The notes under the pieces: model-generated
Told to the model about the DNA's origin: nothing
Seen by the model: the letters and a program-made list of their open reading frames with translations, nothing else
Database searches by the model: none
Shown here: positions 2,015-12,878 of the stretch, piece by piece
Layout of the letters: each line of letters begins with the position of its first letter
How positions within the stretch are numbered: position 1 is the first letter of the stretch
From: a virus
Taxonomy: Duplodnaviria > Heunggongvirae > Uroviricota > Caudoviricetes
Length of the DNA stretch: 13,344 bases
Virus record (IMG/VR): IMGVR_UViG_2537561689_000011
Direction: 5' to 3' (one strand)
Translations under genes and position numbers: made by a program

Positions 2015-2382
2015 AATGCTTTCGCATGGTGCTTAAACCGTGGTGCGAGAGACGCAGTCTTTCCCAGAATGCACTCAGCCACATGTGGTACAGCGAAATC
2101 AGTGAATACCTCATCAGCAGGGGTAAAACGTTCGCCACTCCAGCTTGGGTAAAAGATGCTCTCAAACACACATATCTCGGTTATGAAACCAAAGACCTGG
2201 TTGATGTCGTAACCGGTGATATCACCACTATCCAGTCGTTACGCCATACCTCCGATCTTGATACCGGAGAGATGTATGTCTTCCTGTGTAAGGTTGAAGC
2301 CTGGGCGATGAATATTGGTTGCCACCTGACTATTCCACAGAGCTGCGAGTTCCAGCTGCTGCGCGACAAGCAGGAGGCGTAA
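2015..2382 (+). pseudogene. NinB/YbcN-family phage recombination protein, 5'-truncated by the IS66 insertion
   Basis: Frame continues from the IS junction: ...RSLSQNALSHMWYSEISEYLISRGKTFATPAWVKDALK..., resembling the NinB signature (RSLDQNRKLWACLGDVS in lambda NinB) but missing about 30 N-terminal residues. The track ORF 1984..2382 starts at an ATG inside the IS terminus, giving an IS-phage hybrid reading frame. Lies directly upstream of ninE as in DLP12. Confidence 0.5.
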
Positions 2383-2552
2383 TGGCTACACCGCTTATTC
2401 GTGTCATGAACGGACACATCTACAGAGTACCAAATCGTCGTAAGCGTAAACCTGAGCTGAAGCCATCCGAAATACCAACACTGCTCGGATATACCGCCAG
2501 CCTGGTTGATAAAAAATGGTTGCGACTGGCAGCAAGGAGGAGTCATGGCTGA
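2382..2552 (+). CDS. ninE: NinE-family protein (56 aa)
   Basis: [56 protein letters not shown]; position and basic KRK-rich pattern match lambdoid NinE. ATG at 2382 sits one base after the stop of the preceding gene. Confidence 0.7.
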   Translation: MATPLIRVMNGHIYRVPNRRKRKPELKPSEIPTLLGYTASLVDKKWLRLAARRSHG

Positions 2553-2835
2553 TTTGAGAAAAGCAGCGCGTGGTCGGGAATGCCAGGTAAGAATCCCTGG
2601 CGTATGTAATGGCAACCCTGAAACGTCTGTACTGGCACATATCCGGCTGACTGGATTGTGCGGCACCGGTACGAAACCGCCAGACCTGATTGCCACCATT
2701 GCATGTTCTGCCTGCCACGACGAAATCGACCGCCGCACTCATTTTGTCGATGCTGCATATGCAAAAGAATGCGCGCTGGAAGGTATGGCGAGAACACAGG
2801 TTATCTGGCTGAAAGAGGGGGTTATTAAGGCGTGA
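2545..2835 (+). CDS. ybcO: YbcO-like DUF1364 protein (putative nuclease, 96 aa)
   Basis: [35 protein letters not shown]..., Cys-rich, recognised as DLP12 YbcO; overlaps ninE by 8 nt and rusA by 4 nt (operon-style coupling). Confidence 0.7.
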
Positions 2836-3194
2836 ATACCTACAGCATCACATTACCCTGGCCTCCGAGCAATAATCGCTATTACCGCCATAATCGCGGG
2901 CGCACGCACGTCAGCGCAGAGGGGCAGGCATACCGCGATAACGTCGCCCGAATCATTAAAAACGCAATGCTGGATATCGGCCTGGCTATGCCTGTGAAAA
3001 TCCGCATTGAGTGCCACATGCCGGATCGCCGTCGCCGTGACCTGGATAATCTGCAAAAAGCCGCTTTTGACGCACTCACTAAAGCAGGTTTCTGGCTGGA
3101 TGATGCTCAGGTCGTTGATTACCGCGTTGTGAAGATGCCTGTTACCAAAGGTGGGAGGCTGGAACTGACCATCACCGAAATGGGGAATGAATGA
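2832..3194 (+). CDS. rusA: RusA Holliday-junction resolvase (120 aa), GTG start
   Basis: [46 protein letters not shown]...TITEMGNE matches E. coli RusA from recall; start codon GTG at 2832 overlaps the ybcO stop. Confidence 0.9.
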
Positions 3195-3331
3195 TGTTTG
3201 AGTTTTATATGGCAGAACGTCTTCGCCACCGCTGGGGGCGTCTGCGCTTATATCGTTTCCCCGGTTCTGTTTTGACCGATTACCGAATACTGAAGAATTA
3301 CGCCAAAACCCTGACAGGAGCAGGAGTATGA
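3191..3331 (+). CDS. ylcG: YlcG-like small protein (46 aa)
   Basis: ATG at 3191 overlaps the rusA TGA (ATGA); translation [46 protein letters not shown]. Below the ORF-track size cutoff; found by hand. Confidence 0.5.
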
Positions 3332-3416
3332 AGTCAGAGATAACAATCAACTAATACTGTTTTGTTGATTTTTGCTTGTAATTGGCGTTCTGGTCTGATT
3401 TTTGTGGAGTAAGTTG

Positions 3417-3800
3417 ATGCGTGATATTCAGATGGTTCTTGAGCGTTGGGGAGCGTGGGCGGCTAATAATCATGAAGATGTGACCTGGTCGTCCATTGCC
3501 GCCGGTTTTAAGGGATTAATTACTTCAAAAGTAAAATCTCGCCCGCAATGTTGTGACGATGACGCGATGATCATTTGCGGGTGCATGGCCCGTCTGAAAA
3601 AGAACAACAGCGATTTGCACGATTTATTAGTAGATTATTATGTAGTCGGTATGACATTCATGTCACTGGCAGGTAAGCATTGCTGCTCTGATGGTTATAT
3701 CGGGAAAAGGTTACAGAAGGCTGAGGGCATAATTGAAGGGATGTTAATGGCATTAGATATCCGGTTAGAGATGGATATCGTTGTTAATAACTCTAATTAA
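3417..3800 (+). CDS. quuD: Late-gene antiterminator Q (DLP12 QuuD-like, 127 aa)
   Basis: [24 protein letters not shown]...[37 protein letters not shown]... recognised as the lambdoid Q family of the phage 21/82/DLP12 type; lies downstream of the nin/rusA genes as expected. Confidence 0.85.
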
Positions 3801-3820
3801 TACGCCAATTATTTACTAAA

Positions 3821-3852
3821 AGTTATTAAAAATGGGGCGTTGAAACGCCCCC
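3821..3852 (-). terminator. Intrinsic terminator of the porin transcript (minus strand)
   Basis: Stem GGGGCG (3834-3839) / CGCCCC (3847-3852) with loop TTGAAA; on the minus strand it is followed by a U-rich tract (reverse complement of AGTTATTAAAAAT). About 140-170 nt downstream of the porin stop. Confidence 0.5.
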
Positions 3853-3940
3853 AAAAATAAAGGGTAATATATAACAGAAGGTTTGTATAGTTAGAAGCAA
3901 GGTTGTGCTTCTAAAGGAAGTGGCTTGAGGGAGCCACTTA

Positions 3941-3978
3941 TATGTTGGGGAGGCAAAGCCTCCCACAACATATCTTTT
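3941..3978 (+). terminator. Plus-strand hairpin plus U-run (candidate terminator downstream of Q)
   Basis: Arms ATGTTGGGGAGGC / GCCTCCCACAACAT (one bulged base) followed by TCTTTT; overlaps the ipeX-like region on the other strand. Confidence 0.3.
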
Positions 3979-3988
3979 AGTAATCAAA

Positions 3989-5071
3989 TTAGAACTGGTA
4001 AACCATACCTACAGCAACGATATCATCGGTAGCAACGCCAGATGCTTTCGTGAAATCGCTCTTATCAATCAGGTTGATTTTGTAGTCAACAAAAGTGGAC
4101 ATATTTTTGTTGAAGTAATAGGTTGCACCTACATCAACATATTCAACCAGGTCCTGATCACCCCAAACACCCAAGTCTTTTCCTTTAGAATGCAGGTAAG
4201 CAACGGATGGACGCAGGCCGAAGTCGAACTGATATTGTGCAACAGCTTCGAAGTTTTGTGCTTTGTTGGCAATATGGTTATTACCAAAAACAGTCATGTT
4301 CTGGGTTTCAGAATAGGTGGTAGCCAGATAGATGTTGTTCGCATCATATTTCAGACCAGCTGCCCATACTTCAGCATTTTGACCAGATGCATTCAGGCTG
4401 TTGTTACCGTAGATAACCTGATTATTAGTGCGGTCAGATTTAGCATAGGTTGCACCTACACCGAATCCTTCATACTCATAAGTAGTGGAGAAACCGAAAC
4501 CATCACCATTAGCTTCAGTTACGTCAGTGCGGTCATTTTTACCCTGATACTGAGCAGCAAAGTTCAGACCATCAACCAGACCAAAGAAGTCATTGTTACG
4601 ATAAGTTGCAACACCTGTGGTGCGACCAGTCATGAATACATCTGTTTGGGTCCAGGTATCGCCACCGAATTCTGGCAGAACGTCGGTCCATGCACCAATA
4701 TCGTATGCTACACCGTAGTTACGGCCATAATCGATGGAGCCGTAGTCACCGAATTTCAGGCCAGCGAAGGCAAGACGGGTTTTATCTTTGGAGGAACCTT
4801 GAGATTCAGCGCGGTTGCCTTTGAATTCATATTCCCACTGACCGAAACCAGTCAGTTGATCGTTGATTTGGGTTTCACCTTTGAAGCCAAGACGGGCATA
4901 AGTAGTATCACCATCATCTGCATCATTAGAGGAGAAGTAGTGCTTAGCATTAACTTTCCCGTACAGATCCAGCTTGTTACTGTCTTTATTATAAATTTCA
5001 GCTGCCTGAGCAGACATCGCCATCAGTACTGATGCAGCTACAGCAGAAATTGCCACTGTTAATTTTTTCAT
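3989..5071 (-). CDS. nmpC: Outer-membrane porin, OmpC/OmpF/PhoE family (NmpC/Lc-like), apparently intact, 360 aa
   Basis: Signal peptide [23 protein letters not shown], then [16 protein letters not shown]..., conserved ...[12 protein letters not shown]..., ...PEFGGD..., ...[10 protein letters not shown]... and C-terminal ...VGMVYQF with terminal Phe. Start set at the MKK Met (5071), not the upstream ATG at 5131 used by the ORF track. Sits between Q and the holin, as nmpC does in DLP12 and lc in PA-2. Confidence 0.9.
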
Positions 5072-5438
5072 CGTGAGCCCTTTTTTTGAACTATTATTAA
5101 AAAATGATGTCACTGCGCGATAAATATTCATCTAATCAATGTGATTATTTCAAGATGTAAGTTTTGGTTTCTCATTTGATTTGTGAAGTAGATCTCTATT
5201 TTTATCTGAACTTTTTCTATCGAATCCTATTCATGGCTCTTGGCTGAATAAAAATAAATCTATTAGCCAATTTATATTAATGGCTGTTATTTATAAGTGC
5301 TCTATAATTTGAAGATTCAATTTAAACCAGCTAAAAATAACGCTGGAAATTATTTGTTGGTTATTTGTTGAGATTTGCTTATGTATTTGTAGTGGTGTTT
5401 TCAATACTCGGTAGCATTCTCGCAAATATCATTTAGTG

Positions 5439-5467
5439 GTTTACGTACGTAAAAAATTGGTTATGCT
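5439..5467 (+). promoter_or_regulatory. Candidate sigma70-like late promoter upstream of the lysis cassette
   Basis: TTTACG (5439-5444) - 17 bp - TATGCT (5462-5467), about 30 nt upstream of a strong plus-strand terminator hairpin; the layout resembles lambdoid pR'-tR'. By-eye hexamer match only. Confidence 0.25.
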
Positions 5468-5497
5468 GTTAAGAGTGGTTACTTCGTCACACAGCTT

Positions 5498-5530
5498 AAA
5501 CCCGCCGTCGAGCGGGTTTTTCCATTTTTT
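5498..5530 (+). terminator. Intrinsic terminator (tR'-like) upstream of the holin
   Basis: 8-bp stem AAACCCGC / GCGGGTTT with loop CGTCGA, followed by TTTTCCATTTTTT; about 130 nt upstream of the holin start. Confidence 0.45.
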
Positions 5531-5658
5531 GAGTCTCGATATTAGCTGATAACCCAATACCTGAGTTATTCACTGACTCCGAGTCTGTTACGTTTCTGCT
5601 TTTTTGCGATACGTTGTATTCCCTCAATTTACACCCGCTTTGTCTGCGAGGTGGGGTT

Positions 5659-5874
5659 ATGAAATCCATGGATAAGTTAACAACGGGTGTCGCCTATGGC
5701 ACCTCAGCAGGTAGTGCCGGTTACTGGTTTTTACAGCTGCTCGATAAAGTCACGCCCTCACAGTGGGCAGCAATAGGTGTGCTGGGTAGCCTGGTATTTG
5801 GCCTGCTGACGTACCTGACAAACCTTTATTTCAAGATTAAAGAAGATAAGCGCAAGGCTGCGAGAGGTGAATAA
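5659..5874 (+). CDS. essD: Class II holin / pinholin of the S21 type (71 aa) with dual-start motif
   Basis: [71 protein letters not shown]; two predicted transmembrane segments and Met1/Met4 dual start (MKSM), characteristic of the S21 pinholin. Start moved to 5659 from the track's upstream ATG. Confidence 0.85.
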
Positions 5875-6371
5875 TGCCTCCATCATTACGAAAAGCCGTT
5901 GCTGCTGCTATTGGTGGCGGAGCAATTGCTATAGCATCAGTGTTAATTACTGGCCCAAGTGGTAACGATGGTCTGGAAGGTGTCAGCTACATACCATACA
6001 AAGATATTGTTGGTGTATGGACTGTATGTCACGGGCATACAGGAAAAGACATCATGCTCGGTAAAACGTATACCAAAGCAGAATGCAAAGCCCTCCTGAA
6101 TAAAGACCTTGCCACGGTCGCCAGACAAATTAACCCGTACATCAAAGTCGATATACCGGAAACAATGCGCGGCGCTCTTTACTCATTCGTTTACAACGTG
6201 GGTGCTGGCAATTTCAGAACATCGACGCTTCTTCGCAAAATAAACCAGGGCGATATCAAAGGCGCATGTGATCAGCTACGTCGCTGGACATATGCTGGCG
6301 GTAAGCAATGGAAAGGTCTCATGACTCGTCGTGAGATTGAGCGTGAAATCTGTTTGTGGGGTCAGCAATGA
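5874..6371 (+). CDS. rrrD: SAR endolysin (T4-lysozyme-type muramidase with N-terminal signal-anchor-release domain, 165 aa)
   Basis: N-terminal Gly/Ala-rich weakly hydrophobic segment [18 protein letters not shown] (SAR domain), followed by the catalytic triad pattern E-x8-D-x5-T in [20 protein letters not shown] overlaps the holin stop (TAATG). Confidence 0.9.
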
Positions 6372-6835
6372 ACAGAGTAACCGCGATTATCTCCGCTCTG
6401 GTTATCTGCATCATCGTCTGCCTGTCATGGGCTGTTAATCATTACCGTGATAACGCCATTACCTACAAAGCCCAGCGCGACAAAAATGTCAGAGAACTGA
6501 AGCTGGCGAACGCGGCAATTACTGACATGCAGATGCGTCAGCGTGATGTTGCTGCGCTCGATGCAAAATACACGAAGGAGTTAGCTGATGCGAAAGCTGA
6601 AAATGATGCTCTTCTGCGGAAGCTTGATAATGGTGGCAGGGTGCTCGTCAAAGGAAAATGCCCTGTGCCATCCTCTGCCGAAACCTCCAGCGCCTCCGGC
6701 ATGGGCAATGATGCCACCGTCGAACTCTCTCCAGTTGCTGGACGAAACGTTCTCGATATCCGGGACGGAATTATCCGCGACCAAACAGCACTGAGAACGC
6801 TTCAGGAATACATTAGGACGCAATGCCTTCGATGA
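6368..6835 (+). CDS. rzpD: Rz i-spanin (inner-membrane spanin subunit, 155 aa)
   Basis: N-terminal transmembrane segment [21 protein letters not shown] followed by a charged, coiled-coil-like periplasmic domain; ATG at 6368 overlaps the endolysin stop (ATGA). Confidence 0.8.
6588..6794 (+). CDS. rzoD: Rz1 o-spanin (outer-membrane lipoprotein), embedded in the +1 frame of Rz
   Basis: [21 protein letters not shown]... with lipobox MVAG-C and proline-rich mature region ([16 protein letters not shown]), entirely inside Rz in another frame, the classic Rz/Rz1 architecture. Confidence 0.75.
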
Positions 6836-6931
6836 TAGCGATAATTTTACTCATCATCCTTCACATCTGGCTCTGTAGACAGGGTGGTGATCACTTCTGG
6901 AGTAAATCCAGATTAAACATCTCATTGCTGA

Positions 6932-9006
<2,075 letters not shown>

Positions 9007-9135
9007 ATTGACACTCACGCGCATATTAACGAGAGCCTTTCAGTAAGCGAGCCTGAGAAATGCCGTTATAGGTGGCGACCTCTCTCGGGCGGCTTTTCTG
9101 TGAGACAGGCTCACTTTCTAAAAGGTAAAGACGCT

Positions 9136-9660
9136 ATGAATAATCATTCAGTTATTCCAGCCTTCGACTTCCGAGAAATGGTGCAAGCCAAAAACGGAGA
9201 GGTCGTTACCACATCCAGAAAAATTGCCAAGTACTTCGGCAAGCGACACGGTGATGTTCTCAGGAAAATCGAGCAGGTTAAGGCTGATTGCTCGCGTGAG
9301 TTTAGCCAACGCAATTTTGCGTCGGCTGATTATATCGATGAGCAGGGCAAGGTTCGCCCGATGTACAGCCTGACGAAAGATGGCTGGATCATGGTTGTGA
9401 TGGGGTTCACCGGGAAAGCTGCTGCGGCAATCAAGGAGAGCTATATCGCAGCATTCAACTGGATGGCAGAACAACTGAGCCGCCGCATGGCAATTGGCGA
9501 AGAAATGCAGCACCGCTACGCCATCAAAGAAACACGCTCAAAGCTGAAAGGTACGATCGGCAGTCGGTTAATGAACGAACGGAAGAAAGAGAAGCGTGTC
9601 CTGGCTGTCGAGCATGAATACATCTTGCAGGTGACACAGCCTGAACTGCTGATTAATTGA
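9136..9660 (+). CDS. rha: Rha-family phage regulatory protein (174 aa)
   Basis: MNNHSVIPAFDFREMVQAKNGEVVTTSRKIAKYFGKRHGDVLRKIEQ... matches the N-terminal Phage_pRha signature as I recall it. Start chosen at 9136 because the track's upstream extension (from 8986) begins inside the IS100 end. Confidence 0.7.
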   Translation: MNNHSVIPAFDFREMVQAKNGEVVTTSRKIAKYFGKRHGDVLRKIEQVKADCSREFSQRNFASADYIDEQGKVRPMYSLTKDGWIMVVMGFTGKAAAAIKESYIAAFNWMAEQLSRRMAIGEEMQHRYAIKETRSKLKGTIGSRLMNERKKEKRVLAVEHEYILQVTQPELLIN

Positions 9661-9962
9661 AGATGTCATTACAAAGCCTATCTACGGGGGGCTTGATAAT
9701 GGCTTATACCCTGCACGGGATAACTTAACTGATATCCCTTTTAACGGATAAAGGTATTCAAGCCTGACACATCATGCGCTGTATCGTCGCCGTATTCCCG
9801 CATTAACCATGACCGTAGCCCGACGGGGAATTCCTTCTGCGTGAGTGTGCGGGAATAATCAAAAACGATGCACACCGGGTTATTAACGCGTCAACTGAAC
9901 GCGGGGTTGCTCTTCATGTCAGCCAGTCCGGTGCAGGGGTAGAAGAAACCGGACGTTATGGT

Positions 9963-10373
9963 TTAGTGTGGAAACATTTGTGATGTGCTCTGTATGTTTT
10001 CAGTAAAGAGTAATGAATTATCAAAGGCATAGTAATATCTTTTTTGTTCGTGGATATTTGTAACCCACCGAAAAACTCCTGCTTTAGCAAGGTTTCTTCT
10101 GTATTCCTGAAATGTGATCTCTCTGGATTTCAGCTTATTAGAGGTCGTTTCTATAAGATGCCTATCCTTTGAAAATTTGACAGACACAATGTTTTTTAGG
10201 CCCTTTAATAACACTGTATTATCATTTTTTAATACAATATGAACATTCTCTGTGGCTAAATAGTAAATGTAATGTGAGACATTATGACGTTTTAGCTCAG
10301 AATAAAACCATTGATAGTTTAAATCGTTTCGAACTTTATCAAATATTTGTTTAAAAATGACTACCTGATCCAT
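9963..10373 (-). CDS. ybcV: YbcV-like DUF1398 protein (136 aa), AT-rich moron gene
   Basis: [49 protein letters not shown]...; start placed at the Met preceded by GGAAGG (the track's ORF begins 14 codons upstream at 10415). GC content is visibly lower than the surrounding phage genes. Identity to DLP12 ybcV is from recall. Confidence 0.55.
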
Positions 10374-10431
10374 AGATAAACCTTCCATGTGATATGAGGG
10401 GGGCGTAGTCTGCACGATTATCTAAATTGCT

Positions 10432-10665
10432 TCAATCTGGTCTGATCTGTTTTCTGAGCAATTCAGTAATGTCACTCTTTTCTTTGTTTGCTTCAGGAGA
10501 AACTCTTTTTTCTGAGCACAGTCTCCGGCGGCAGGCTTCAATGACCCAGGCTGAGAAATTCCCGGACCCTTTTTGATCAAGAGCGATGTTAATTTGTTCA
10601 ATCATTTGGTTAGGAAAGCGGATGTTGCGGGTTGTTGTTCTGCGGGTTCTGTTCTTCGTTGACAT
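10432..10665 (-). CDS. ylcI: YlcI-like small protein (DUF3950) with ribbon-helix-helix-like N-terminus (77 aa)
   Basis: MSTKNRTRRTTTRNIRFPNQMIEQINIALDQKGSGNFSAWVIEACRRRL...: basic N-terminus, predicted beta-strand (RNIRFP) then helices, as in CopG/Arc-type DNA-binding proteins; AGGG ribosome-binding site upstream; directly upstream of and co-oriented with the ybcV-like gene. Confidence 0.5.
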   Translation of the reverse strand: MSTKNRTRRTTTRNIRFPNQMIEQINIALDQKGSGNFSAWVIEACRRRLCSEKRVSPEANKEKSDITELLRKQIRPD

Positions 10666-10830
10666 GAGGTTGCCCTGTATTCAGTGTCACTGATTTGTAT
10701 TGTCTGAAGTTGTTTTTACGTTAAGTTGATGCAGATCAATTAATACGATACCTGCGTCATAATTGATTATTTGACGTGGTTTGATGGCGTAGATGCACGT
10801 TGTGACATGCAGATGATAATTATTATCATT

Positions 10831-11053
10831 TTGCGGATCCTTTCCGGCGATCCGACAGGTTACGGGGCGGCGACCTCGCGGGTTTTCGCTATTTATGAAA
10901 ATTTTCCGGTTTAAGGCGTTTCCGTTCTTCTTCGTCGTAACTTAATGTTTTTATTTAAAACACCCCCTGAAAAGAAAGGAAACGACAGGTGCTGAAAACG
11001 GGCTTTTTGGCCTCTGTCGTTTCCTTTCTCTGTTTTTGTCCGTGGAATGAACA
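10831..11053 (+). other. Lambda-type cos site (cosQ - cosN - cosB), cosN GGGCGGCGACCT at 10865-10876
   Basis: The 12-nt lambda cohesive-end sequence GGGCGGCGACCT is present at 10865-10876, preceded by ...CCGACAGGTTACG (lambda right-end sequence) and followed by the Nu1-binding region leading into nu1; matches the phage lambda cos region from recall. Confidence 0.8.
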
Positions 11054-11599
11054 ATGGAAGTCAACAAAAAGCAGCTGGCTGACATTTTCGGCGCGAGTAT
11101 CCGTACCATTCAGAACTGGCAGGAACAGGGAATGCCCGTTCTGCGAGGCGGTGGCAAGGGTAATGAGGTGCTTTATGACTCTGCCGCCGTCATAAAATGG
11201 TATGCCGAAAGGGATGCTGAAATTGAGAACGAAAAGCTGCGCCGGGAGGTTGAAGAACTGCGGCAGGCCAGCGAGGCAGATCTCCAGCCAGGGACTATTG
11301 AGTACGAACGCCATCGACTTACGCGTGCGCAGGCCGACGCACAGGAACTGAAGAATGCCAGAGACTCCGCTGAAGTGGTGGAAACCGCATTCTGTACTTT
11401 CGTGTTGTCGCGGATCGCAGGTGAAATTGCCAGTATTCTCGACGGGATCCCCCTGTCGGTGCAGCGGCGTTTTCCGGAACTGGAAAACCGACATGTTGAT
11501 TTCCTGAAACGGGATATCATCAAAGCCATGAACAAAGCAGCCGCGCTGGATGAACTGATACCGGGGTTGCTGAGTGAATATATCGAACAGTCAGGTTAA
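11054..11599 (+). CDS. nu1: Terminase small subunit Nu1 (181 aa)
   Basis: MEVNKKQLADIFGASIRTIQNWQEQGMPVLRGGGKGNEVLYDSAAVIKWYAERDAEIENEKLRREVEELRQ..., essentially lambda Nu1 (N-terminal winged-HTH cosB-binding domain). Confidence 0.9.
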   Translation: MEVNKKQLADIFGASIRTIQNWQEQGMPVLRGGGKGNEVLYDSAAVIKWYAERDAEIENEKLRREVEELRQASEADLQPGTIEYERHRLTRAQADAQELKNARDSAEVVETAFCTFVLSRIAGEIASILDGIPLSVQRRFPELENRHVDFLKRDIIKAMNKAAALDELIPGLLSEYIEQSG

Positions 11600-12878
11600 C
11601 AGGCTGCGGCATTTTGTCCGCGCCGGGCTTCGCTCACTGTTCAGGCCGGAGCCACAGACCGCCGTTGAATGGGCGGATGCTAATTACTATCTCCCGAAAG
11701 AATCCGCATACCAGGAAGGGTGCTGGGAAACACTGCCCTTTCAGCGGGCCATCATGAATGCGATGGGCAGCGACTACATCCGTGAGGTGAATGTGGTGAA
11801 GTCTGCCCGTGTCGGTTATTCCAAAATGCTGCTGGGTGTTTATGCCTACTTTATAGAGCATAAGCAGCGCAACACCCTTATCTGGTTGCCGACGGATGGT
11901 GATGCCGAGAACTTTATGAAAACCCACGTTGAGCCGACCATCCGCGATATTCCGTCGCTGCTGGCGCTGGCTCCGTGGTATGGCAAAAAGCACCGGATAA
12001 CACGCTCACTATGAAGCGTTTTTCCAATGGTCGTGGCTTCTGGTGCCTGGGCGGTAAAGCGGCAAAAAACTACCGTGAAAAGTCAGTGGATGTGGCGGGT
12101 TATGATGAACTTGCTGCCTTTGATGAGGATATTGAACAGGAAGGCTCTCCGACGTTCCTTGGCGACAAACGTATTGAAGGCTCGGTCTGGCCAAAGTCCA
12201 TCCGTGGCTCCACGCCCAAAGTGAGAGGCACCTGTCAGATTGAGCGTGCAGCCAGTGAATCCCCGCATTTTATGCGTTTTCATGTTGCCTGCCCGCACTG
12301 CGGGGAGGAGCAGTACCTTAAATTTGGCGATAAAGAGACGCCGTTTGGCCTCAAATGGACGCCGGATGACCCCTCCAGCGTGTTTTATCTCTGCGAGCAT
12401 AATGCCTGCGTCATCCGCCAGCAGGAGCTGGACTTTACTGATGCCCGTTATATCTGCGAAAAGACCGGGATCTGGACCCGTGATGGCATTCTCTGGTTTT
12501 CGTCATCCGGTGAAGAGATTGAACCGCCTGACAGTGTGACCTTTCACATCTGGACAGCGTACAGCCCGTTCACCACCTGGGTGCAGATTGTCAAAGACTG
12601 GATGAAGACGAAAGGGGATACGGGAAAACGTAAAACCTTCGTGAACACCACGCTCGGTGAGACGTGGGAAGCGAAAATCGGCGAACGTCCGGATGCTGAA
12701 GTGATGGCAGAGCGGAAAGAGCATTATTCAGCGCCCGTTCCTGATCGTGTTGCTTACCTGACCGCCGGTATCGACTCCCAGCTGGACCGCTACGAAATGC
12801 GCGTATGGGGATGGGGGCCGGGTGAGGAAAGCTGGCTGATTGACCGGCAGATTATTATGGGCCGCCACGACGATGAAC
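11574..12878 (+). pseudogene. A: Terminase large subunit (lambda gpA-like), inactivated by a 1-nt frameshift near 11994 and 3'-truncated by the IS66 insertion at 12879
   Basis: Track ORF 11574..12014 (MNISNSQVNRLRHFVRAGL...WYGKKHR then ITRSL-stop) and track ORF 11975..12988 in another frame (...DNTLTMKRFSNGRGFWCLGGKAAKNYREK...GIDSQLDRYEMRVWGWGP...) are consecutive parts of one gpA-like protein. The frame switches at CACCGGATAAC (11991-12001), where a CGG-GAT reading needs one more G. Terminase-like sequence stops at ...GRHDDE, the IS terminus starts at 12879, and only about half of a roughly 640-aa large subunit is present. Confidence 0.85.

Follow-up and report, generated by a model that had tools for sequence, protein, structure and literature searches.

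Does the tail of a phage-borne porin transcript regulate the major porins of the host and, if so, how are their mRNAs recognized? This question is raised by a 13,344-nt stretch of DNA from a tailed phage (Caudoviricetes; IMG/VR record IMGVR_UViG_2537561689_000011), which was analysed as a whole and is called the window in the following. It contains an intact porin gene of the nmpC/lc type on the minus strand, and the 3' untranslated region (UTR) of this gene is nearly identical to ipeX. According to the literature, the ipeX RNA is made as the 3'-terminal part of the porin transcript and reduces OmpC and OmpF at a post-transcriptional level. A review states that it is made from the porin promoter and needs processing from a longer transcript to a stable species, and it has been described as Hfq-independent. 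The RNA has been said to have no complementarity to its targets and to act indirectly or without pairing (PMC3617542; PMC10690425), and the statement of no complementarity was repeated as late as 2023. The results described below point to another answer, i.e., a short unpaired segment of the RNA is predicted to pair with the start regions of ompC and ompF, and antisense occlusion of their ribosome-binding sites (RBSs) by this segment is the mechanism that we favour and, on the basis of modelling, consider fairly probable.

The 3' UTR of the Porin Gene Is an Allele of ipeX

The UTR extends from the first base after the porin stop codon (3989-3991) to the end of the terminator U-run (3826-3988, minus strand). 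The published ipeX comprises 167 nt, which would correspond to about 3822-3988 of the window. Alignment with the stretch between the nmpC stop codon and quuD in the DLP12 prophage of Escherichia coli K-12 revealed identity at 160 of 168 positions, and the sequence downstream of lc in phage PA-2 (J02580) is identical to that of K-12 (95-96% identity of the window UTR to K-12/PA-2). The equation of this region with the ipeX of DLP12 and PA-2, which had been put forward in a first-pass annotation made from the sequence alone, is therefore borne out by the alignment. That annotation had also placed about 168 nt between the stop codon and the terminator. This value fits the whole UTR, which has a length of about 161-167 nt including the terminator, but stop codon and terminator stem are only 137 nt apart.

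The UTR is predicted to fold into three hairpins, an unpaired linker, and a terminator, all on the minus strand. Hairpin 1 (3940-3973) has 8 + 7 bp with one bulged U, and its fold is accompanied by a compensatory change in E. albertii. Hairpin 2 (3918-3939) has 8 bp and an invariant CCCUCA loop (3926-3931), and hairpin 3 (3891-3914) has 9 bp; for both of them the fold is accompanied by covariation with a second type of UTR, which is found in phage P7 and described below. The linker, as deduced from the fold, comprises 39 nt (3852-3890) and contains the putative pairing segment, or "seed", AACCUUCUGUUAUAUAUUACCCUUUAUUU (3855-3883), which is supported by lists of predicted pairs, shuffling, genomic background, accessibility, and conservation. 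The intrinsic terminator of the porin transcript (3828-3851) was found by a terminator scan as well as by folding; its stem runs from 3851 to 3834 and its U-run from 3832 to 3828. The tail of the terminator is A-UUUUU-AAU and thus has only five U, and a U-rich sequence, UUUAUUUUU, lies ahead of the terminator. The minimum free energy of the UTR is -58.5 kcal/mol, compared with -28.9 +/- 3.3 kcal/mol for 200 dinucleotide shuffles, none of which was as low (z-score -9.0). The several stable hairpins that had been noticed at first sight are thus three hairpins plus the terminator.

The element shares with the ipeX of DLP12 and PA-2 (Castillo-Keller, Vuong, and Misra 2006) its location directly 3' of the nmpC/lc stop codon, its end at the porin terminator before quuD, and the same hairpins, linker, and terminator. 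It differs from the K-12 copy in that the porin gene ahead of it is intact, like that of PA-2, while the K-12 gene is split by the insertion sequence IS5. The differences from K-12 ipeX amount to seven substitutions and one 1-nt indel, which are located in the 5' leader, the bulge and loop of hairpin 1, the terminator loop, and that part of the linker which precedes the pairing segment on the 5' side; the stems are free of them. Within the pairing segment there is no difference between the window, K-12, and PA-2, and the published phenotypes should therefore apply to the window allele. From the near-identity to K-12 we infer that the window allele would yield a stable RNA and would lower OmpC and OmpF. 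The UTR had no match in Rfam 15 at gathering thresholds, and with E-values up to 10 only chance-level matches appeared. Rfam 15 seems to lack an IpeX family, because an allele that is 96% identical to K-12 would match one. In the RefSeq record of strain MG1655 (NC_000913.3), micF and micC are annotated as genes for non-coding RNAs, and no ipeX feature is annotated between quuD and nmpC.

The Linker Is Predicted to Pair With the Start Regions of ompC and ompF

Pairing was scored by cofolding the UTR with start regions of K-12 and by adding terms for accessibility; duplex folding of full-length RNAs was dropped, as it yielded unrealistic duplexes with long loops. The free energy differences upon cofolding (ddG) were -24.0 kcal/mol for ipeX with ompC and -19.8 kcal/mol for ipeX with ompF, compared with -10.0 kcal/mol for ompA and -6.4 kcal/mol for the porin's own leader, and the scores of the latter two are at background level. 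For validated pairs of host small RNAs (sRNAs), the same procedure gave -26.7 kcal/mol for MicC with ompC and -23.0 kcal/mol for MicF with ompF. The pairing to both mRNAs that had been suggested for checking was thus found computationally. When the energies for opening of the sites were included, the totals were -18.2 kcal/mol for ipeX-ompC versus -15.6 kcal/mol for MicC-ompC, and -13.2 kcal/mol for ipeX-ompF versus -18.5 kcal/mol for MicF-ompF.

The predicted duplex with ompC consists of two helices. Helix 1 is formed by 5'-AACCUUCUGUUAUAU-3' of ipeX and 5'-AUAUAACAGAGGGUU-3' of ompC (15 bp, one G-U), and helix 2 by 5'-CCUUUAUUU-3' of ipeX and 5'-AAAUAAAGG-3' of ompC (9 bp). Together they would make a 24-bp duplex from -31 to -7, which includes the Shine-Dalgarno sequence and shares positions with the MicC site. 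The predicted duplex with ompF is weaker, spans -23 to +9, i.e., the MicF site, and is centred on AUUACCCUU paired with GAGGGUAAU. The pairing segment (nt 106-134 of ipeX) has a computed probability of being unpaired of about 0.5-0.9, irrespective of whether 300 nt of the upstream coding sequence are included, and its computed opening energy is 1.6 kcal/mol. On the target side, 5345 of 5426 E. coli genomes have an ompC region from -60 to +20 with an identity of 99% or more, and the ompF region is slightly more variable.

Two kinds of background were used to assess the specificity. When only the linker was shuffled and the hairpins were kept, the observed value was reached by none of 400 shuffles for ompC (z-score -6.7), by three of 400 for ompF, and by 99 of 400 for ompA. 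Against real sequences, none of the 83 annotated start regions of K-12 and none of the 2852 genomic windows of 140 nt had a score as low as that of ompC (-24.5), and the score of ompF (-15.2) was reached by one of the 83 start regions and ten of the 2852 genomic windows. The scores of ompA and of the porin's own leader are ordinary in this real-sequence background as well.

A comparison with MicC and MicF reveals similarities and differences. The linker of ipeX contains GUUAUAU...CCUUUAUU of the MicC 5' end and AUUACC of the MicF core, the predicted sites on ompC and ompF overlap those of MicC and MicF, and the energies are comparable. However, MicC and MicF are encoded by free-standing genes, carry their seeds at the 5' end, and depend on Hfq. 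In contrast, ipeX forms the end of an mRNA and carries its pairing segment internally, behind three hairpins, one and the same segment would serve both porin mRNAs, and the pairing is predicted. In other respects ipeX resembles sRNAs derived from 3' UTRs (of the CpxQ, DapZ, and SroC type), which have the terminator in common with the parental mRNA and an unpaired stretch just upstream of it, and ipeX too is reported to require processing from a longer transcript. It differs from them in that three additional hairpins precede its pairing segment on the 5' side.

Distribution and Conservation in Lambdoid Prophages

Of 5426 complete E. coli genomes, 2510 (about 46%) contain the UTR, nearly always with at least 90% identity, and it is also present in 36 phage records. 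In searches with blastn and nhmmer the lambdoid type was found only in E. coli and E. albertii; it was not found behind the chromosomal OmpD-type porins of Salmonella, Citrobacter, Enterobacter, and others, with blastn or with nhmmer using single sequences and profiles. One match to an apparent phage porin of Salmonella turned out to be the chromosomal ompN region and is irrelevant. The best 80 relatives of the porin in IMG/VR had identities of 99-100% throughout and contributed little diversity, and variation was therefore assessed in a broader sample obtained by a pattern scan of viral contigs and genomes, which comprised 199 copies (36 of them distinct).

Among these 199 copies the pairing segment is the least polymorphic part of the UTR, with four variable sites out of 29, compared with 50 out of 135 elsewhere. 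The E. albertii sequences contain one compensatory change in hairpin 1, from C-G to U-A. One-sided changes in hairpins 2 and 3 within the lambdoid family all lead to G-U pairs, which can form only in the RNA with the sense of the porin mRNA.

A Sister Element in P7 and P1-Like Phages

A tblastn search with the porin uncovered nmpC in phage P7 and in P1-like phages. The nmpC 3' UTR of P7 (AF503408; 2617-2799 of the stretch examined) is a sister of ipeX, and four further examples were found in P1-like phages. These UTRs are missed by blastn with ipeX and, in the accessible literature, are not described as ipeX. The overall identity to the window UTR is 54%, with higher values of 74% for the pairing segment and 82% for hairpin 2. 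The order of the parts, i.e., hairpins 1, 2, and 3, linker, and terminator, is the same as in ipeX. The P7 type differs in its linker, which is about 20 nt longer and matches ompF better than ompC, and in its location beside ssb in a P1-type genome, where no Q gene is nearby. It is present in 116 plasmids of PLSDB, some of them from E. fergusonii, Klebsiella, and Salmonella, and it was not found behind the chromosomal OmpD-type porins of other genera.

The stems of the two types have changed in a way that retains pairing. The outer stem of hairpin 1 is built from different paired bases in the P7 type, two pairs of hairpin 2 are changed on both sides under an unchanged CCCUCA loop, and three pairs of hairpin 3 are changed on both sides. 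Taking hairpins 2 and 3 together, five of 17 pairs are changed on both sides, 97% of the cells are paired, and the covariation score was reached by none of 500 shuffles. Over ten aligned sequences the longest invariant runs lie in the pairing segment (GUUAU-N-UAUUACC), which is the best conserved unpaired block in the comparison with P7.

The linker of the P7 type, GUUAUUUAUUACC, matches the core of micF at 12 of 13 positions, and micF with the same motif is found upstream of ompC orthologues in many genera. Pairing of the P7 UTR was predicted with ompF (-18.3; none of 200 shuffles) and with the region of the ompC start codon (-14.6; none of 200 shuffles), and no pairing was predicted with ompA or with its own porin leader. 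The invariant CCCUCA loop of hairpin 2 is complementary to the Shine-Dalgarno sequence (U)GAGGG of ompF and ompC, and may be the site of a second contact or of protein binding.

Proposed Mechanism and Alternative Explanations

In the mechanism that we favour, the active part of ipeX would be the single-stranded linker segment of about 29 nt between hairpin 3 and the terminator. By pairing with the ompC leader (15 + 9 bp) it would block the RBS, as MicC and MicF do, and the weaker pairing with the start region of ompF would lead to the same block. Stabilization or processing of the RNA would be the task of the three upstream hairpins and the terminator. The leader of the phage porin would escape repression, as it lacks a complementary sequence. 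From the effects of ipeX reported in the literature it follows that a lysogen swaps the porins of its host for the porin of the phage.

This mechanism fits the reported targets, the reported lack of an effect on OmpA, and the escape of the phage porin. The abstract of Castillo-Keller from 2006 reportedly stated that OmpA was not affected and that only the effect on ompF needed Hfq. Such a pattern fits a strong duplex with ompC and a weaker one with ompF. The reported Hfq-independence would also be in agreement with antisense occlusion, because the predicted ompC duplex is 24 bp long. If this is correct, IpeX, which has been called an indirect or non-pairing regulator since 2006, would be no exception to antisense control. 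Its linker would mimic the seeds of MicC and MicF, and the P7/P1-like sister would do likewise with a micF-like linker; given the computed pairings, we judge this wider claim to be slightly favoured. The pairing model with its defined segment and defined positions on ompC and ompF is new, and the divergent P7-type relative provides a natural comparison. If the model is true, IpeX would join the ordinary RBS-occluding RNAs and would provide a clear example of a phage that mimics the seeds of host sRNAs. Two unrelated types of temperate phages would then carry a cassette of a porin plus an RNA against the host porins that copies host sRNA seeds. The exchange of the major host porins by a prophage alters the availability of phage receptors and the permeability for small molecules, and the module is present in nearly half of the sequenced E. 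coli genomes.

Several points weigh against RBS occlusion by the linker. According to PMC3617542 and PMC10690425, complementarity is absent and the RNA acts indirectly or by a route other than pairing, and all support for pairing presented here is computed. The start regions of the paralogues ompC and ompF resemble each other, and hence the two matches are not independent. When the whole RNA of the K-12 allele was shuffled, its ompF score was weak (z-score -1.3). The tail of five U followed by A would, judged from its sequence, be a poor 3' end for Hfq. Covariation inside the lambdoid ipeX family is not significant, as there is a single compensatory pair, which was matched by 86 of 500 shuffles, and the compensatory changes relative to P7 represent essentially one phylogenetic split. 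Lastly, an inverted porin leader could have left the complementarity behind as a relic.

The strongest competing explanation is that, as the original authors reportedly concluded, ipeX needs no pairing with the mRNAs to lower OmpC and OmpF; it might act by titration or recruitment of proteins via the hairpins (of the ProQ, CsrA, or RNase type) or by an envelope-stress route, and the match of the linker would be incidental. The reviews that report no complementarity and Hfq-independence are in agreement with this explanation, and so is the terminator tail as a seemingly poor Hfq site. In addition, the CCCUCA loop of hairpin 2 is invariant over a covarying stem, which argues for a sequence-specific role outside of the linker. 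However, an incidental match would have to account for a predicted 24-bp ompC duplex that surpasses that of MicC with ompC, that no linker shuffle out of 400 and no genomic window out of 2852 could equal, and whose site is exactly the RBS. Moreover, the target pattern, i.e., ompC and ompF, and not ompA or the own leader, recurs in the divergent P7-type element. Regulation without pairing is regarded as possible, yet rather unlikely.

Another explanation confines the UTR to the end of the transcript, where the hairpins would shield the porin mRNA from 3' exonucleases and transcription would be stopped before Q, with no role in trans for the window allele. Strong hairpins followed by a canonical terminator are what such a module would look like, one survey has grouped ipeX with sRNAs containing palindromes that resemble repetitive extragenic palindromic (REP) sequences, and in clinical isolates the ipeX level had no clear relation to OmpC. 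However, the nearly identical K-12/PA-2 sequence has been reported to repress OmpC and OmpF when it is expressed, and none of the eight differences between the window and K-12 affects a stem or the pairing segment. A pure stabilizer would also leave unexplained why an unpaired linker of 29 nt is conserved across homologues that are only 54% identical. A role restricted to the transcript end is thus improbable.

The plus strand deserves a separate treatment, as the ipeX region begins 1 nt past the stop codon of the Q gene, where lambda and the Shiga toxin (Stx) phage 933W have PR'. QuuD is about 78-81% identical to the Q proteins of Stx phages such as 933W, and in the 933W record pR' and tR' are annotated just after Q. 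Their homologue in the window is located at 5440-5529, between the promoter region of the porin and essD, and not at 3801-3990. It comprises a PR'-like late promoter (TTTACG, 16 nt, TATGCT; 5440-5467, plus strand), assigned by homology to the annotated pR' of 933W, and a tR'-like terminator ahead of the lysis genes (5498-5529, plus strand; essD starts at 5659), assigned by a scan and homology to 933W. Therefore, the porin-ipeX cassette is inserted between Q and PR'. The plus strand of the UTR folds about as well as the minus strand (z-score -8.1), because palindromic hairpins appear on both strands. A terminator scan of 3801-3990 yielded only the minus-strand terminator and none on the plus strand. 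The convergent plus-strand hairpin of the first-pass annotation is thus a mirror image of the minus-strand hairpins. Of the interference between sense and antisense transcription that had been envisaged along with it, only one route would be left: with PR' at 5440-5467 the late transcript does not cross ipeX, and antisense RNA could arise only if early transcription continued past Q. Conservation of the DNA for a role on the plus strand, as a Q-dependent PR'/qut/tR' or antisense-interference site, is largely refuted and very improbable, in spite of the position next to Q and the stable plus-strand fold, by the location of the 933W pR'/tR' homologues upstream of essD, by the absence of any plus-strand promoter or terminator from the scan of 3801-3990, by the natural G-U variants in hairpins 2 and 3 that pair only in the minus-strand RNA, and by the same architecture of the P7-type element beside ssb with no Q nearby.

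Genomic Setting of the Module

The locus is almost certainly the lc/nmpC-ipeX cargo module of a lambdoid prophage of the DLP12/PA-2 type, which is located between Q and PR' and read against both. The module itself is an already known object, and here it is undisrupted. The gene order is of the DLP12 type: the nin genes, rusA, and quuD on the plus strand are followed by the porin gene on the minus strand and by essD, rrrD, and Rz on the plus strand; beyond Rz there is an IS100 insertion, then Rha, and then packaging genes. The window is E. coli DNA, and its region 2015-12297 is 99.9% identical to the chromosome of the enterotoxigenic E. coli (ETEC) strain 120899. The quuD gene (3417-3800, plus strand) encodes the Q antiterminator according to its annotation and to Pfam Phage_antitermQ (E = 3.5e-53), and it is 100% identical to quuD of K-12. 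It is convergent with the porin gene, and 28 nt separate its stop codon from the U-run of the porin terminator. Only the consensus scan picked up a weak terminator-like hairpin on the plus strand inside the 3' end of quuD (3756-3779; GATATCCGG...GGATATC, followed by GTTGTTAATA).

The prophage is degraded by the insertion of an IS66-family element and of IS100. The IS66-family element occupies 1-2014 of the window in place of sequence that is present in strain 120899, and its open reading frames (ORFs), TnpB_IS66 (1148-1498) and HTH_Tnp_1 (1495-1932), are both on the minus strand. It cuts a NinB/ybcN-like ORF at about 2015, and therefore the prophage is truncated on that side. The istA and istB genes of IS100, a member of the IS21 family, are located at 7147-8947, between Rz and the Rha regulator. 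The istA ORF ends at 8100 and encodes 317 instead of 340 amino acids, as it has one base fewer at about 8053 than NZ_CP025916.1, which is either a frameshift or a sequencing error.

The Porin Gene

The porin gene (3989-5071, minus strand) encodes 360 amino acids plus the stop codon, as deduced from the ORF, profile matches, and comparison with K-12. It begins with a signal peptide of 23 amino acids (5003-5071, minus strand), which has the same length as the signal peptide annotated for lc of PA-2 (J02580); after it the mature protein starts with AEIYNK, and the C-terminus is ...MVYQF. The protein covers Pfam Porin_1 (PF00267) from end to end (positions 1-337 of 337, E = 1e-152), it scores 515.3 bits in the OmpC subfamily of NCBIfam with a cut-off of 484, and the solved mature chains of OmpC, OmpK36, and OmpF align with its residues 24-360. 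With a full-length domain, a signal peptide, and a C-terminal Phe it belongs to the general bacterial porins (OmpC/OmpF/PhoE/NmpC). In strain 120899, which is 100% identical here, it is annotated as "porin OmpC". The earlier view of a full-length porin with signal peptide and C-terminal Phe, unlike the nmpC of K-12, which is split by IS5, is thus confirmed by the intact ORF and the complete domain match.

For a comparison of the proteins, NmpC of K-12 was reconstructed by removal of IS5 and of the 4-bp target duplication. The reconstructed protein has 365 amino acids, and 331 of 365 positions are identical to the window porin (91%). At the DNA level, the identity to K-12 is 87.6% for the porin coding sequence, 95.2% for the 3' UTR, and 100% for the Q gene. 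The porin shares with Lc of PA-2 and NmpC of DLP12 the OmpC-family architecture of 16 strands, the same signal peptide, and the location between Q and the lysis genes, and the identity of the upstream regions, in which the annotated CRP site lies, is 97%. This site is located at 5179-5199 (minus strand) in the window, based on homology to misc_binding 1363-1383 of the PA-2 record J02580. In contrast to the 365 amino acids of its relatives, the window porin has 360, its identity is 90.7% with Lc and 91% with NmpC, and the substitutions and indels are located in three or four blocks, presumably surface loops. The remaining protein is nearly identical to K-12 NmpC outside of these few blocks with indels. 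Examples are RTD---VTEANG in the window porin versus RSDFDNYTEGNG in NmpC, and a second block that corresponds to DTQVNAGKVLPEVFASGK in NmpC. On the sequence level, the blocks look like an exchange or diversification of surface loops. In the record of phage 434 (OL657227.1), the nmpC porin is annotated with an IS5 insertion after codon 346, and this disruption is apparently of the same kind as that in DLP12 of K-12.

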